From an uncultured Candidatus Saccharibacteria bacterium (lineage in GTDB: Bacteria; Patescibacteriota; Dojkabacteria; B142; OLB20), in assembly GCA_964420145.1 (NCBI GenBank), contig CAYQRB010000001.1, forward strand, positions 1-60,008: a DNA stretch of 60,008 bases. Reading direction: 5' to 3'. Shown piece after piece: positions 5,727 through 44,059 of this stretch; within the stretch, counting starts at the first letter, position 1, and each line of letters begins with the position of its first letter. The position numbers were made by a program, and so were the translations under genes. The notes under the pieces were generated by a model that saw nothing but the letters and a program-made list of their open reading frames with translations, made no database searches and was not told the DNA's origin.

Positions 5727-6449
5727 TTAAGGTGCAGGTAATAAACAGTATCTGATATCTGTGCCTCCTGGGCTACGACAAACATAACCAGGTTCACAAA
5801 CAACATATCCGACACCACTACACTGTTTAGAATGTCCAATAACTCTAGGTTGCGGAACAATCGAAATATCAAATAAACTCCCTGTCAAGCCGACAACTAG
5901 TGCTGTAACCTGTACAATTGCAATAAACAAAAAAGTAATTAAAGCACCTAGTACTGCATTTTTCGCTATTGAGGAAGCTTTTTCTATTTTTTCGGTATTG
6001 TCTGACGCAGTAGATCTCTCCCATACCACCCAGAAAGCTATTATTACCTGTACAAAGATTAGAAAGCTAATCACCGCATAAACACCAAGCCTCACAATAG
6101 TCATCATACAGTATGGATCATCTGGAGGCCTTTGTGCTGGGTCGGGACAAAGCTCTATAGAAAACAGATTAAAGGCGGGTCTTACCTTCTTGGGAACCTC
6201 GGGCCACAAACTTGCTGGATCTAGAGTTTTACATACAGAAGGTTGGCCAAATTCACAACTTTTTCCTCCAGTAACACAGCTTCTGGCACAGGTTTTGTTA
6301 CACACGGGATTACGAAAACCCCCACTAGTCGTATATGCTATGCAAGTCGGTTCTGGGACCAACTCATCCGTACCCTGTGCCTCCACCCTATTCCAGAGCA
6401 AAGGAATAAGAAAGAAAAGTATTATTAAAAAAAATAATTTTTTAAACAT
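5727..6449 (-). CDS. pilin-family paralog (240 aa) with Cys-rich domains on both sides of the two-helix core
   Basis: Signal peptide ending RVEAQG. N-terminal domain contains 10 Cys. Core VYAVISFLIFVQVIIAFWVVWERSTASDNTEKIEKASSIAKNAVLGALITFLFIAIVQV. The C-terminal domain has 4 Cys. Confidence 0.55.
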   Translation of the reverse strand: MFKKLFFLIILFFLIPLLWNRVEAQGTDELVPEPTCIAYTTSGGFRNPVCNKTCARSCVTGGKSCEFGQPSVCKTLDPASLWPEVPKKVRPAFNLFSIELCPDPAQRPPDDPYCMMTIVRLGVYAVISFLIFVQVIIAFWVVWERSTASDNTEKIEKASSIAKNAVLGALITFLFIAIVQVTALVVGLTGSLFDISIVPQPRVIGHSKQCSGVGYVVCEPGYVCRSPGGTDIRYCLLPAP

Positions 6450-20779: not shown

Positions 20780-21967
20780 TCAATCAGCATAGTTATCAAA
20801 ATAACCTTGAATATATACAACAGGAGTCCCTTTATCTCCACTACCACTTATCAAATCACATAAAGAACCAAGCAAATCAGTAAATTGTCTAGGTGTAGTT
20901 CCTTGAGACAACATATTACCTTTCAAATCATCCTCTTTATTTTTAATTTCTTGCTTTATTGCCTTAGTCAGTTCATTCCCTTTCAGATTGGTATATTTAT
21001 TATCTGATAAATATTTAAGTTTTAACTCATTTGGAGTACCCACTAATCCATCAGTAAAAAAAGGACTAACTACCGGATCAGCTAGCTCCCAAATACCTCC
21101 GATCGGGTCTTTATATGCACCATCTCCATAAACCAATACTTCTACTTTTTTCTTTATTAGGTCAAATATCTTCTTTTTAATTCCAAGGATTACTTTTTCA
21201 CCATGTTCAGGGAAAAGTTTGACCTGTTCTTCTGTTGCCTTATTTGATCCCAATAGACCATATCTAGAATTATAGCCACTTCCATTAACACTAACTTTTA
21301 AAATATCATCTATTCCATAAACGATATCTGTTTTATCTTTATAAAATCGTTTTAATTTATCACGGTTATGCACACTGGCAACCAGAACATTTTTTGTATA
21401 ATCTAAAATCACCTTTTGATTATTTGCAAAAATAAACTCTACTTCACAGTTTTCACTTTCAACCAATTCTTGAAAATACTCGATATAATTTACACCCGTA
21501 TATAAATGTTTTTCTTTTCCAAATAACTCTTTGTATTTAACTAAATCTAACACATCAGAATAGGGATTTAGCCTGTTTTTTTCTACTAGATCAGGATTAA
21601 ACAAAGAATTCCCAACCTCATCATTTGGGTAATGCATTTGTAAATATATCTTTTTACTTGCCCTTGCAATGCCTTTTAGAATCAATGAAAAACGATTACG
21701 ACTAACGGGAGTTGGAAATACCACTCCAAGTATACCTCCTGGATATTTGCGTTTCACATCTTCAGCAATTTGATCAACTGTCGCGTAGTTTCCTTCGGCA
21801 ATAGCAACAACAGCCTCCGTTATACCAATAATATCCCTGTTTCTTATTACTAATTGCTTACTTTTATGAGCCTTCATAATTGAATCAACAACAATTTTTA
21901 CTAAATCATCATTTTCTTTAATTACTGGAGTTCTGATTCCCATTGCTACCGTACCAAATACTCGCAT
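20780..21967 (-). CDS. CofE-like (F420-0:gamma-glutamyl ligase family) protein
   Basis: PVIKENDDLVKIVVDSI...IIGITEAVVAIAEGNY resembles the N-terminal CofE-fold signature. The assignment is tentative. Confidence 0.45.
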   Translation of the reverse strand: MRVFGTVAMGIRTPVIKENDDLVKIVVDSIMKAHKSKQLVIRNRDIIGITEAVVAIAEGNYATVDQIAEDVKRKYPGGILGVVFPTPVSRNRFSLILKGIARASKKIYLQMHYPNDEVGNSLFNPDLVEKNRLNPYSDVLDLVKYKELFGKEKHLYTGVNYIEYFQELVESENCEVEFIFANNQKVILDYTKNVLVASVHNRDKLKRFYKDKTDIVYGIDDILKVSVNGSGYNSRYGLLGSNKATEEQVKLFPEHGEKVILGIKKKIFDLIKKKVEVLVYGDGAYKDPIGGIWELADPVVSPFFTDGLVGTPNELKLKYLSDNKYTNLKGNELTKAIKQEIKNKEDDLKGNMLSQGTTPRQFTDLLGSLCDLISGSGDKGTPVVYIQGYFDNYAD

Positions 21968-31660: not shown

Positions 31661-32908
31661 ATGGATACCAACACCCCAGGGAAAAAACGGCTTTTAAACA
31701 ATATTACTTTTTTTGGTGATTCTGCAATCCCGGAAGATAGTAAGATCTATAAAGAAGTTTGGCATTCTGCAAAGATCTTAGCAGAGAGAGGTTATACTAT
31801 AGTTAATGGTGGTGGGCCAGGTGTGATGAAAGCAGCGACTGATGGTGCAGAGAAAGGGAAAGGGAAGACAATAGCAATTTATTGGCAACCTAAACTCGCT
31901 TCGTTTTTTGAAGGAAGAAACCTAGCCAACATTACGGATGAATATGAGACTGCAAGCAACTATATGACCAGAACTTTGGGACTTATTGAGAAAGGAGATG
32001 CTTATATAGTTTGCAAAGGTGGTACTGGAACCATTTCTGAGTTTGGTATGGTATGGGCATTAGCAAAACTATACTATGGCTGTCATAAACCAGTTATCTT
32101 GTTTGGTGATTTCTGGGATCCCATTATAGAAACTATCCAAAATCAGATGAATATTGATGAGAAAGAACTAGCAGTACTCTACCAAGCTACAACCCCAGAA
32201 CAACTTCTATCTATTCTCGAAAAACACGAACTAAAGATTGGTGATTGTGCTGAAAAAGAAATCTCAGGAGATGAATCTGCATTCATACTAAGCCCTAGAC
32301 ATTTGACTAATATAGTTGCCTTTGATCAAGAAGCTGTTAACTATGATGAGCAACATGCCGAAAAACCCGTCTCTCATGAACAACTTGATGAATTTATATC
32401 ACTCGTCCACCCACCAGCAAAAGTACTTGATCTAGGGATTGGATTCGGACAAGATTCAAAATACTTATCAAGTAAATATACCATGACTGGTATAGACATT
32501 TCTCCAAAATCAGCGACTATCGCCAGGTTCGAAAACCCAGGAATGGAAGTTATTGTAGCAGATATGGTCGATTATGATTTCGGAAAAAATATTTATAAAG
32601 GGGTTTGGGCTAGAAACTCTCTCCACCACATCGAAGACAAATATCAAGATAGATTGTTTCAAAAAATCTTTGATGCACTGGTTGAAGAAGGAGTATTTTA
32701 TCTAGTTGTTCGCGAAGGGGAAGGAGAAATAACCGAAACCAATGAAAAAGGTTATCAAAAAATAGAAAAATTCTATCATTTATTTAGTAAAAAGGAGGTC
32801 TTAGACAGAGCTTCAAAGGCAGGTTTCCTTGTTGAAAAAATTGAAACAGTAATCAGAAGTCATAAGTGGCTTAATATAATCCTCAAAAAACCAAAATCCG
32901 AGTTATGA
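31661..32908 (+). CDS. LOG-family (TIGR00730-type) domain fused to a class I SAM-dependent methyltransferase
   Basis: LOG motifs GYTIVNGGGPGVMKA and KGGTGTISEFG. C-terminal MTase motif I VLDLGIGFGQDS and later VWARNSLHHI...GVFYLVV. Confidence 0.7.
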   Translation: MDTNTPGKKRLLNNITFFGDSAIPEDSKIYKEVWHSAKILAERGYTIVNGGGPGVMKAATDGAEKGKGKTIAIYWQPKLASFFEGRNLANITDEYETASNYMTRTLGLIEKGDAYIVCKGGTGTISEFGMVWALAKLYYGCHKPVILFGDFWDPIIETIQNQMNIDEKELAVLYQATTPEQLLSILEKHELKIGDCAEKEISGDESAFILSPRHLTNIVAFDQEAVNYDEQHAEKPVSHEQLDEFISLVHPPAKVLDLGIGFGQDSKYLSSKYTMTGIDISPKSATIARFENPGMEVIVADMVDYDFGKNIYKGVWARNSLHHIEDKYQDRLFQKIFDALVEEGVFYLVVREGEGEITETNEKGYQKIEKFYHLFSKKEVLDRASKAGFLVEKIETVIRSHKWLNIILKKPKSEL

Positions 32909-34505: not shown

Positions 34506-34599
34506 CTAAACATGTGTATTACAAATATTATCTACTTGCCCTAACCTGGGATTCTTTGTTTATCTAAAGTTTGAAACTTTTATAAATTATATGATAGTA

Positions 34600-34673
34600 T
34601 TAATTACTAACTTAGTGAAGAAGGGTGTGATTCCCTCACTGTGCCGCAGCGGTAAAAGTCCGACCCTAATTAG
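34600..34673 (+). promoter_or_regulatory. compact cobalamin (B12) riboswitch-like aptamer
   Basis: UUAAUUAC...UAGUGAAGAAGGGUGUGAUUCCCUCACUGUGCCGCAGCGGUAAAAGUCCGACCCUAAUUAG. P1 is 34600-34606 paired with 34667-34673. A nested stem AGUGA/UCACU encloses a GGG-UGUGAUU-CCC hairpin. The GCCGCAGCGGUAA and AGUCCGA blocks resemble the conserved Cbl core as I recall it from btuB-type and short class-II examples. Confidence 0.6.
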
Positions 34674-34691
34674 TCAATCTATTTTAAATGA

Positions 34692-36146
34692 TTGATAGTC
34701 CCGAGCAGGAATCATATATTTTTCCCTCCAAGACTATCTCCAATTACCCTTATGGCGATTGCAGAGATACCAGATACAAAACCAGGCTTTACTTACTCGC
34801 CAGAATACTCTACTGTATCAGACTCCTTAGATACATTAAAACAGGTATTTTTTCAAATAGCAGGAGAAAGACTAGACAGTCTAAGAGGAACTGATTTCTC
34901 TTCACTAAAAAGAACATACTCTAGTCGTGGAAATACAATTAACTATGTAGTTGACCTATTAGAAACTTATACTAATTATTACGGGGACTATGAAAAAAGA
35001 GAGTTAGAGGTTAGTAATAATCTACTAACCGCCGTTATCGAGCACGCACTAGCCGATTCTACCGGAATATATACATATACAAACTTTTGGAAACCAGAGA
35101 GTGGAAGCTTGTCTCTTCATACCGAATATGGATCACTTTCTGAAATTATTCAAAACTCAATCGATGATGAAACAGGACAGGTCCCCGAATTTGAAGTTCA
35201 TAGGAATATTCAAGAGCTATTATTTTTAAATAAACTAACTACAGCTAGAAATCGTGGAATAGATGAAACAGGGGTTGTATTTAGCCCAAGTCCAGATATG
35301 TCTAATCCCAAGACACAAGCGCGTGGATATCAAGGTAATGACCAAATTCGTATATCAAGAAAGGGAGAAAACGGAATCGAAGAACAAACTATATACTGGT
35401 TTCCCAGAGTGGAAACGACTCAATATATTGAGCTAGCACAACAACTAATTGAAGCAGACCCGAATCACAGGTCAAGCCGATATTTAAGAGATTCCGTAGT
35501 ACAAATCATAAAGAATCCTACTGATATAAATATAATGGCGTGTTCAGACATATTTTCCGACAAACAAATGGAAGTTATTACACACTTTATAGAAAAGAAT
35601 CAACAACAACTTCCGACCGATCATAGTGTAATTACAAACTATATAAATACAGCAATACAAGGAGTTACTACAGCAAAACTACTAAATTTAACCTACCAGG
35701 GGACAATATCTTTACTAGAAGATGATACTCCCTCCCTAAATCAGAAATTAGAACAAATTTTCGACTTAATTGAAGAGGCTCAGTTTGCTTTTAGGCTTTT
35801 TGTTCGAGACCATGGTGGTATAAATACATTCACTCCAGAAATCTCAAATCAGCTAAACTATACATGGTCACAATACCAACAGATGTCTTTTGAGAATCGT
35901 CAGCAAACATTTAGACCGTCTGGTTTTAGTGGAAGCGGTTGTGGGTTTAGTGGTCAAGAAATAAAACTAAAAAACGGTTCCAGTATTTGGGGGCCTATGT
36001 CAGTACATGCAAATATCATGGGAATTCAGTCCTCCTTCCCAAGTGATTTTGGGGAACCTCATCACGCTAGTTGCAAAGGCTGTAACAGCTATACAATAGT
36101 AGGTGGTTGTGACCTTTGTATTAGTTGTCATAATCGATTTTCTTGA
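34692..36146 (+). CDS. orphan cytoplasmic protein with C-terminal Cx2Cx8Cx2Cx2C zinc-ribbon-like motif
   Basis: Long ORF directly downstream of the riboswitch-like element. The maximal ORF starts at TTG 34692, and the first ATG is at 34752. C-terminus SCKGCNSYTIVGGCDLCISCHNRFS. No signal peptide or TM helix. Confidence 0.6.
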   Translation: MIVPSRNHIFFPPRLSPITLMAIAEIPDTKPGFTYSPEYSTVSDSLDTLKQVFFQIAGERLDSLRGTDFSSLKRTYSSRGNTINYVVDLLETYTNYYGDYEKRELEVSNNLLTAVIEHALADSTGIYTYTNFWKPESGSLSLHTEYGSLSEIIQNSIDDETGQVPEFEVHRNIQELLFLNKLTTARNRGIDETGVVFSPSPDMSNPKTQARGYQGNDQIRISRKGENGIEEQTIYWFPRVETTQYIELAQQLIEADPNHRSSRYLRDSVVQIIKNPTDINIMACSDIFSDKQMEVITHFIEKNQQQLPTDHSVITNYINTAIQGVTTAKLLNLTYQGTISLLEDDTPSLNQKLEQIFDLIEEAQFAFRLFVRDHGGINTFTPEISNQLNYTWSQYQQMSFENRQQTFRPSGFSGSGCGFSGQEIKLKNGSSIWGPMSVHANIMGIQSSFPSDFGEPHHASCKGCNSYTIVGGCDLCISCHNRFS

Positions 36147-43367: not shown

Positions 43368-43615
43368 ATTATATAACAGATACGCTCCTCTGTCCCCTGA
43401 GACAAGAGTTAAAAAAACACAAAAGAATCGCTTATGGGAGTGATATTCCTGGAAAAACCCCGTTATTGGTAAAGATGGCAGGAATAGACACAGACCATAA
43501 CTCAGGTTAAGTTCAAACTTCGCTCATGCTCGTTTTCACTAACACCTGGTATATCGAACCCTACGGGTTCTTCAGTTAGATATCCACACCGCTTTCGACT
43601 TTATCGGAATCACTG

Positions 43616-44059
43616 TGGAGATGGCGGGAATCGAACCCGCGTCCAAACCTGACCAAAACCTCCCACTACAAGTTTAGTTAATTTGGTTTGAAGTAGCTTG
43701 ATCAAAATTAACAAAAGCCAAACTACTTTGATTTATAAATTCTTGGGGTTTAAGTATAAATCAAACTTAAACCTTGTATTTCGACTATGTTGCTCCTCTA
43801 TCCCCTCGCCGAAAGAAGGAAAATAGAGAAGGTTGCCGATTTAATTAGGCAACAGCAAAGTTAATAGCTGGCTCTATGCCAAAAAATGCAGCTACTTTCG
43901 CAGATGCACTATCAAACATTGCTATAAATTTGTTTTTGACGCTTATTGTCAAATCTCTGATTACTCAGAGCCATTATGTCTTTGTTTAACGAAGCGACAC
44001 AATGAACACCTCGACCTGCGGTAGATCTCGGTTCAAATCTGTCGAAGCCGATCATCCCC
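43616..44059 (-). ncRNA. ssrA: tmRNA (SsrA)
   Basis: 5' GGGGATGATCGGCTTCGACAG... and 3' ...GGACGCGGGTTCGATTCCCGCCATCTCCA. The acceptor stem GGGGATG/CATCTCC includes the G3-U wobble. T-arm GCGGG-TTCGATT-CCCGC. The internal tag frame ends ...GCT ATT AAC TTT GCT GTT GCC TAA (AINFAVA*). CCA is not encoded. Confidence 0.9.

Follow-up and report, generated by a model that had tools for sequence, protein, structure and literature searches.

A compact cobalamin riboswitch aptamer upstream of a protein family without recognisable domain or fold

The riboswitch locus

The DNA considered here is a stretch of 60,008 nucleotides (60 kb) of contig CAYQRB010000001.1, hereafter the window, which carries on its forward strand a monocistronic gene for a protein of 464 residues (34752-36146). 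For the leader of this gene a reading made from the sequence alone (the sequence-only reading) had proposed a compact cobalamin-riboswitch-like aptamer of kissing-loop type, and the sequence features that it listed at 34600-34716 are all present there. The whole window was scanned against all 4227 Rfam families, and RF01689 (AdoCbl-II) matched at 34604-34676 (+), a span of 73 nt that covers model positions 1-81 of 81, with 37.4 bits (gathering score 36.5) and an E-value of 2.9e-05; a permissive local scan of 501 nt returned the same match with an E-value of 2.4e-07 and no other credible one. Two matches in the window exceeded the gathering score, this one and a transfer-messenger RNA (tmRNA), so that RF01689 is its sole riboswitch match; at this locus overlapping, lower-scoring matches of the same clan were suppressed in favour of RF01689. 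The elements of the leader that concern the aptamer are listed below, each with the evidence on which it was placed.

34571-34600 (+): promoter-like element (consensus scan; 9/12 matches plus a TG extension)
34604-34676 (+): cobalamin aptamer of the compact class, RF01689 (covariance-model score; homologous aptamers in relatives)
34604-34615 (+): 5' strand of the closing helix P1 (Rfam alignment; compensatory across lineages)
34604-34609 / 34671-34676 plus 34612-34615 / 34666-34669 (+): pairs of the closing helix (Rfam register)
34621-34637 (+): P4 hairpin AGGG/CCCU with the conserved loop UGUGAUU (Rfam alignment; covariation)
34622-34625 / 34633-34636 (+): pairs of P4 (Rfam register)
34640-34648 (+): P5, U34640-A34648 and G34641-C34647, with loop L5, UGCCG, at 34642-34646 (invariance of L5 in leaders)
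34650-34662 (+): P6 hairpin CGG/CCG with the 7-nt loop UAAAAGU (Rfam alignment; covariation)
34650-34652 / 34660-34662 (+): pairs of P6 (Rfam register)
34699-34710 (+): P13/L13 hairpin, UCC 34699-34701, loop CGAGCA 34702-34707, GGA 34708-34710 (conservation; stem covariation)
34752-36146 (+): regulated gene, 464 codons, ATG start, monocistronic (gene callers; starts of homologues)

P6 lacks a peripheral extension, as is typical of the compact RF01689 aptamers, and the P6 extension that marks RF00174 (class I) is absent; the short P6 loop and the presence downstream of a partner for L5 bear out the compact kissing-loop type. The closing helix was likewise foreseen, but in a register (34600-34606 / 34667-34673) that overlaps the extended -10 element, and the Rfam register, which is backed by compensatory changes in P1, replaces it; the nucleotides drawn as an inner AGUG/CACU pairing belong to the junction in the family model and form no helix. 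Scoring with the cobalamin models and a search for structure in homologous leaders had been named as the tests that could overturn the prediction, and both favour a riboswitch. Because the score lies above the threshold and the structure recurs in the leaders of homologues, we regard the element as a real cobalamin riboswitch, and covariance-model and comparative evidence together confirm 34604-34676 as a genuine compact cobalamin riboswitch aptamer, that is, an RNA of known kind.

The promoter-like element comprises a -35 sequence TTGAAA (34571-34576), an 18-nt spacer and an extended -10 sequence TGnTAGTAT (34592-34600); a similar TGnTAnnnT lies a few nucleotides 5' of P1 in the relatives L007 and L010, and the predicted start of transcription coincides with the 5' edge of P1 (about 34605-34609). 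The top sigma-70-like match of the region lies 3' of the aptamer, at 34692-34720 (+) (TTGATA, 17 nt, TATATT; 10/12), and is probably an AT-rich coincidence; were it active, its transcripts would be independent of the riboswitch.

Aptamers upstream of homologous genes

The contigs of relatives of the protein were retrieved and, with one match among the GTDB representative genomes, provided 10 distinct relatives and, including the window, 11 distinct leaders. All 10 relatives examined, at protein identities from 85% to about 20%, carry a cobalamin aptamer on the same strand directly 5' of the gene or of its operon. Nine of the 10 had been found via the protein alone, and the association of aptamer and gene was therefore not selected by the RNA. 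The aptamers of seven relatives reach a gathering score, RF01689 in five and RF00174 in two.

L004: RF01689, 37.4 bits (gathering score 36.5)
L005: RF01689, 38.3 bits (gathering score 36.5)
L007: RF01689, 45.4 bits (gathering score 36.5)
L008/L009: RF01689, 39.5 bits (gathering score 36.5)
L135: RF01689, 43.5 bits (gathering score 36.5)
L001: RF01689, 34.7 bits (below the gathering score of 36.5)
L006: RF01689, 29.0 bits (below the gathering score of 36.5); 40-nt hairpin insert in the P6 loop (L006 5830-5869)
L010: RF01689, 27.4 bits (below the gathering score of 36.5); 20-nt hairpin insert in the P6 loop (L010 about 845-865)
L014: RF00174, 60.1 bits (gathering score 31.5); full class-I form
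L044: RF00174, 43.1 bits (gathering score 31.5); full class-I form

Covariation among the distant leaders was taken from the Rfam alignments (the P6 inserts defeat alignment with MAFFT), in which P1 is fully compensatory across five lineages, occurring as UUACUA/UAGUCA, UAACUU/AAGUUA, UUAUUG/CAAUAA, CGAUAG/CUAUCG and AAAGAG/CUCUUU. P4 varies between AGGG/CCCU, GCGG/CCGC (L014) and CCGG/CCGG (L044), P6 between CGG/CCG, CCG/CGG (L008) and CUG/CAG (L135), and the first pair of P5, U-A, is changed to A-U in L135. Among the seven closest leaders the aptamer is nearly unvaried, with 90.5% of cells paired as against 28-47% in slid controls. Taken as a set, the leaders of homologous genes form a graded series from class I through P6 inserts of 20 and 40 nt to the minimal class-II form, which makes them useful for studying the interconversion of the two classes.

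The L5-L13 kissing loop

Downstream of the aptamer the P13/L13 hairpin presents a hexaloop complementary to L5, as in RF01689 riboswitches, and with one unpaired base: the predicted pairs are C34702-G34646, G34703-C34645, G34705-C34644, C34706-G34643 and A34707-U34642, with A34704 bulged, giving at the level of sequence five Watson-Crick pairs around a single bulged base. In structures of the cobalamin clan the L5-L13 kissing loop always contains at least one unpaired nucleotide, L13 needs to be presented in a stem-loop, and both loops are contacted by the bound cobalamin (Polaski et al., PMC5028336). By their complementarity, and by comparison with these published structures of other clan members, L5 and L13 of the window can pair as a standard kissing loop.

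The two loops are also conserved among the leaders. L5 (UGCCG) is invariant in 11/11 distinct leaders, and L13 is CGAGCA in 10/11 and CGCGCA in L010, so that CGNGCA is kept in all 11 and the conserved motif can be written CC-CGNGCA-GG. The P13 stem around it varies, being UCC/GGA in the window, GCC/GGC in L010, CUUUC/GAAAG in L014, CUUU/AAAG in L135 and UUCCC/GGGAA in L044. The element CCCGNGCAGG was found once in the window, against 0.04 occurrences expected, and a DNA-pattern scan of Joint Genome Institute (JGI) metagenomes located the combined L5/L13 pattern in at least 120 stretches (L015-L134).

Expression platform and direction of the switch

Four relatives carry platforms that can be read directly. 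P13 is separated from the AUG by 2 nt in L010 and by 6-8 nt in L044; in L014 an upstream open reading frame (ORF) of 14 codons (5873-5931, MKINSSTLLVSEMK), beginning 2 nt past P13, ends in a stop that overlaps the main AUG (ATGA), which suggests that there the riboswitch would exert control through translational coupling; and L135 has a clear terminator, CCUUCUCG/CGAGAAGG plus U7, behind P13. As judged from their sequences these four are unambiguous OFF designs. In the 103 metagenome leaders that share this design, P13 and the first start codon are separated by distances with a bimodal distribution: about 40 leaders, which use direct occlusion of the start site, have 15 nt or less, and about 60 have 22-135 nt, many of them with visible terminators. 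Because in relatives P13 directly precedes a start codon or a terminator, the switch of the window is by analogy taken to be OFF, the gene being most likely repressed in the presence of B12. No intrinsic terminator was found in the window leader, for which reason this OFF action would most likely fall on translation initiation.

Between P1 and the start codon of the window three further structures were considered.

34673-34696 (+): hairpin H0, GUCAAUC 34673-34679 / GAUUGAU 34690-34696 (RNAfold minimum-free-energy structure)
34694-34738 (+): alternative fold S1 + H2 (RNAalifold, seven leaders)
34735-34769 (+): hairpin H3 with the AUG in its apical region, predicted at -9.3 kcal/mol (RNAfold)

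H0 lies in the 22-nt linker between P1 and P13, its 5' arm overlapping the final 4 nt of the 3' strand of P1, and has a 9-bp counterpart in L005, L006 and L007; it presumably plays some role in the linker. S1 pairs GAUAGUC (34694-34700) with GACUAUC (34732-34738) in the window and GAUGAUC with GAUCAUC in L005 and L007, and H2 pairs GGAA (34708-34711) with UUCC (34722-34725), which in relatives becomes GGAG/CUCC or GGAGA/UCUCC. For S1 + H2 93% of cells are paired, as against 39-58% in slid controls, 4 pairs are changed on both sides, and the covariation score lies above all 500 shuffles; since only about three lineages contribute, we take this support as suggestive but not conclusive. S1 + H2 occupy both arms of P13, and the two folds therefore compete. 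H3 consists of the helices UAUCUC/GAGAUA, CAAUU/GAUUG and CC/GG, and hairpins around the start codon are likewise predicted for L004, L005, L006 and L007, mostly with z-scores that are not significant.

Two simple links between P13 and translation were rejected. The GGA or GGAG of P13 cannot be read as a Shine-Dalgarno site, as almost no gene of the window has one. A relay in which P13 and the kissing loop free the 3' arm of S1, so that the start-codon hairpin H3 closes, is not supported by constrained folding of six leaders, because the predicted accessibility of the start site is unchanged: it is the same in both states in the window and in L004, and in the remaining four leaders it changes little and in no consistent direction.

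The regulated protein and its family

Only seven relatives, with identities of 85-29%, emerged when 5.8 billion proteins were searched by word index; an exhaustive comparison of a profile with 1.84 billion representatives delimited a family of 59 clusters at 50% identity, and a second protein search, with alignment A2, yielded at least one further relative (P0054); a protein-pattern scan of the JGI metagenomes gave no match to the family. Across 52 members the conserved core comprises E97, Q143, F147-E148, R151, S178-P179-x-P181, R191-G192-Y193 and W216. Next towards the C-terminus comes a G-C-G loop (396-398) whose Cys397 is invariant, likewise across the 52 members, and then a C-terminal four-cysteine zinc ribbon (C441, C444, C453, C456, C459).

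The view that the gene is no known B12 transporter, B12-independent isozyme or cob gene held up in every search made. Pfam has no family match in the 52 members save weak zinc-ribbon matches in a few, NCBIfam gave none for the 464-residue protein, and in comparisons of profiles from alignments A1, A2 and A8 with PDB sequences only the zinc ribbon was matched, at E 0.017 or worse. An AlphaFold2 model with a predicted local distance difference test score (pLDDT) of 84 and a predicted template-modelling (TM) score of 0.79, in which 312 residues reach a pLDDT of at least 90 and the Cys loop and zinc ribbon are flexible, was compared by Foldseek with 350,542 PDB chains, the best match having E 0.23 and the TM scores lying below 0.15. 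Foldseek matches to GAF, PAS and LuxR ligand-binding domains have probabilities of 0.15 or less and are not treated as evidence. A B12-independent ribonucleotide reductase or a glycyl-radical-like enzyme was rejected, as Foldseek found no such PDB fold; in NrdD, moreover, the Cys/Gly motif and the zinc ribbon come in the opposite order to that of the regulated protein. Neither a signal peptide nor a transmembrane segment was found in the regulated protein, which is for that reason probably cytoplasmic. In the library searched we found no literature on this protein family, or on cobalamin riboswitches in the Candidate Phyla Radiation, Patescibacteria or Dojkabacteria.

Gene neighbourhoods and other genes behind the same leader

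In L135 (GCA_964623155.1) the first gene behind the riboswitch encodes a PduO-type cob(I)alamin adenosyltransferase (TIGR00636, 188.9 bits); the family gene comes next, and the 3' end of the adenosyltransferase gene extends 19 nt into it. In L005 riboswitch and family gene are followed on the same strand by a DUF4430 gene and a gene for a DUF6580 membrane protein, and divergent genes upstream encode CobT (TIGR03160, 405.8 bits), CobS (TIGR00317, 115.9 bits) and a CobC-like phosphatase. B12 binders of the transcobalamin type have DUF4430 as their C-terminal domain (PMC4350170). The divergent upstream neighbours in L014, a flavodoxin and a 2-oxoacid:ferredoxin oxidoreductase, may be incidental. 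Because of the probable repression by B12 and these neighbours, a part in the acquisition or processing of corrinoids is favoured over a B12-independent bypass enzyme. As judged from gene neighbourhoods, the regulated protein probably acts in the acquisition or processing of corrinoids, for example in their handling, dealkylation or reduction before adenosylation.

The first genes behind the 103 metagenome leaders encode DUF4430 proteins in 35 cases and DUF6580 proteins in two; two groups without Pfam assignment, of 13 and 11 proteins, together account for 24/103, next in rank after the DUF4430 binders, and there are also a group of 5 (518-666 residues) without identification and 33 singletons. 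Most members of the two Pfam-less groups with a complete C-terminus have an SC/GC-G loop and a zinc ribbon. Matches to the family profile reach E 1.4e-13 in the group to which L044 belongs, the zinc ribbon alone being aligned in profile-profile comparison, whereas for the 11-member group an alignment of 140 columns with the core of the family has a probability of 96.5%; remote homology to that core is shown for the 11-member group only. On sequence evidence, much of what riboswitches of this type control is uncharacterised.

In L018, L033, L042 and L122, the four loci in which another gene lies within about 190 nt behind the cluster-3 relative on the same strand, that gene encodes in every case a protein of about 190-216 residues that matches PF01467 (CTP_transf_like). 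The protein may be NadD-like, and nicotinic acid mononucleotide is the substrate of CobT; the adjacency could be functional or mere synteny.

A possible, though somewhat doubtful, wider reading is that these proteins belong to a large and structurally new superfamily, made up of core, Cys loop and zinc ribbon, that carries out a cytoplasmic step, not recognised before, of corrinoid use in uncultivated bacteria of small genome and is made only when B12 is scarce. Within that reading the protein could be a thiol-based dealkylase or decyanase or a reductase, or else a chaperone supplying the PduO adenosyltransferase. The invariant Cys of the family is, we presume, reminiscent of the cobalt-ligating Cys of BtuM.

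The host and other features of the window

The sole relative among 185,579 GTDB representative genomes lies in a Candidatus Dojkabacteria (WS6) metagenome-assembled genome, and the window encodes a phosphoketolase, an acetate kinase and many orphan proteins. Among its 45 ORFs of at least 150 residues almost none has a GGAG/AGGA-type motif 5' of the first ATG, the upstream regions being A/T-rich, and from these sequences the host appears to start translation without Shine-Dalgarno sites. Gene content, the missing Shine-Dalgarno sites and the Dojkabacteria relative indicate that it is probably a Candidate Phyla Radiation bacterium; the lineage of minimal metabolism assumed by the sequence-only reading is in this light plausible, with indirect support from the one GTDB match.

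Several other features of the window were recorded.

43613-44059 (-): tmRNA (RF00023, 136.4 bits) with an insertion of about 63 nt, relative to the model, after the region of the tag reading frame; a tmRNA of the same kind is present in L004
33820-34128 (+): small Cys-rich protein that matches VWC, pacifastin and fibronectin-I modules of animal type (Pfam E 3e-09 to 4e-05); this VWC-like gene, unusual for a bacterium, is kept beside a diacylglycerol kinase gene in all related contigs
31661-32908 (+): SLOG/LOG-like (lysine decarboxylase-like) domain fused to an S-adenosylmethionine methyltransferase domain, kept in all syntenic relatives
20780-21967 (-): 395-residue protein matching F420-0:gamma-glutamyl ligase (PF01996, E 3.9e-49), unexpected in a bacterium of small genome; the 218-position profile is spread over residues 10-388, which implies a large insertion

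Proposed mechanism and alternatives

We put at roughly 75% the probability that the leader of 34752-36146 is a functional cobalamin riboswitch, which acts as an OFF switch through the L5-L13 kissing loop and controls a corrinoid-related product. In the mechanism proposed, a corrinoid would bind at the four-way junction (P3-P6) and stabilise the pairing of L5 (UGCCG) with the CGAGCA hexaloop of P13; the kissing loop would lock the leader in a compact fold and so lower expression of the gene, and docking may pack the aptamer against S1, H2 and H3, blocking 30S loading at a start site of unstructured-leader type. We infer from the sequence both the binding of a ligand by the aptamer of the window and the signal path to an AUG 41 nt downstream.

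Several observations weigh against this reading. The RF01689 match exceeds the gathering score by only 0.9 bit, and three close or intermediate relatives (L001, L006 and L010) fall below it. Covariation lends the kissing loop no support, because L5 and L13 are invariant, and the P13 of the window has 3 bp only and faces competition from S1 + H2, a fold with better support. Between P13 and the AUG there are 41 nt, the genome does not employ GGA as a ribosome-binding site, and the predicted accessibility of the start site (-6 to +9) in the window is 0.47 in the free and 0.47 in the bound-like fold. The function of the protein is deduced from two gene neighbourhoods only, and a Pfam scan of 27 window ORFs revealed neither a B12-dependent enzyme nor a B12 transporter.

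The best surviving alternative, itself unlikely, retains repression by B12 but places the output at the level of the mRNA, through Rho-dependent termination or access of an RNase within the platform of about 75 nt, with translation affected secondarily. This would account for a leader in which there is neither an intrinsic terminator nor a sequestered ribosome-binding site and in which start accessibility stays unchanged, and the C-rich, G-poor platform stretch UUUUUCCCUCCAA might serve as a loading site for Rho; mechanisms that act on mRNA abundance do contribute to regulation by cobalamin riboswitches (Polaski et al., PMC5028336). No result directly favours Rho or an RNase, however, and direct start-site occlusion is what the roughly 40 of the 103 leaders of the same design employ.

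A switch that turns the gene on is a slightly poorer prospect still. Here the corrinoid would favour P13 and the kissing loop over S1 + H2, the product, made while B12 is available, being for example a B12-dependent or B12-consuming enzyme. There is precedent for activating corrinoid riboswitches (PMC10327014), the kissing-loop hairpin of the window holds neither a ribosome-binding site nor the start codon, and modelling produces a bound-like fold without loss of accessibility at the start; yet the four relatives with readable platforms and homologous genes (L010, L044, L014 and L135) all show OFF architectures, and co-transcription with a PduO adenosyltransferase (L135) and the downstream DUF4430 and DUF6580 genes (L005) fit genes that are induced by B12 scarcity.

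The narrow margin and the sub-threshold relatives could also be put down to a chance or decayed match of AT-rich sequence without regulatory function, but the aptamer has 47% G+C, the element with its compensatory helices is kept in front of homologues that share as little as about 20-30% protein identity, and distant relatives carry RF00174 aptamers at 60.1 and 43.1 bits; comparative sequence evidence for this conservation effectively refutes the chance explanation, which we consider most improbable. Equally remote is the platform proposed by the sequence-only reading, a hairpin AUGAUU (34688-34693) / AAUCAU (34710-34715) sequestering a TTG start at 34692: the hairpin does enclose this TTG in the window, is present in L001 and appears in the bound-like constrained fold, its 16-nt loop containing the conserved P13/L13 element, but its 3' arm is AAUUUU in L004 (79% protein identity) and it is missing from L005 to L008, whilst the gene callers, the database copy P0001 and all homologues start at the equivalent of ATG 34752, just 5' of which L005 has an in-frame TAG.

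Comparison with known systems and significance

The leader thus resembles the RF01689 type (AdoCbl-II, formerly AdoCbl-variant; class II, e.g. env8HyCbl) in its four-way junction, P4-P6 and short P6 loop, in an L5-L13 kissing loop reached via a single-stranded linker, and in its location in the 5' untranslated region on the strand of the gene. It differs from that type in a borderline score and in a linker of 22 nt that contains a hairpin. In env8HyCbl the kissing loop includes an A-G pair and two bulged purines, in contrast to the five Watson-Crick pairs and one bulge of the window, and L13 carries the ribosome-binding site (PMC5028336), whereas in the window P13 carries neither this site nor the start codon, the AUG lying well past it in a host without Shine-Dalgarno sites. 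That feature describes the best-studied member and not the Rfam definition, and a start or ribosome site carried by P13 occurs in L010, L044 and L014. Likeness to class I (RF00174) extends to the core and the L5 and L13 sequences, and aptamers of that class precede the distant homologues L014 and L044; unlike them, the aptamer of the window has no P6 extension or peripheral domain and scores better with RF01689.

BtuM, CbrT and the DUF4430/DUF6580-type uptake genes are genes of the B12 regulon that were first found via their association with riboswitches. The family described here is like them in standing consistently behind cobalamin riboswitches and near genes for corrinoid uptake or salvage, and unlike them in that the regulated protein has no sequence or fold similarity to them, matches nothing in Pfam, NCBIfam or the PDB beyond a generic zinc ribbon, and is probably cytoplasmic.

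The RNA itself is an ordinary compact cobalamin riboswitch that Infernal with Rfam can find, and the interesting lead is the protein family. In this respect the riboswitch serves as a signpost, marking a rare family without recognisable domain or fold that is under B12 control, by class I or class II, in 10/10 relatives examined. Being unable to make B12, Candidate Phyla Radiation bacteria depend on scavenging it, and how they import and activate corrinoids is, to our knowledge, largely unknown. Together with the DUF4430/DUF6580 pair, which predominates behind leaders of this type, the regulated family offers a testable entry to corrinoid use in these bacteria.

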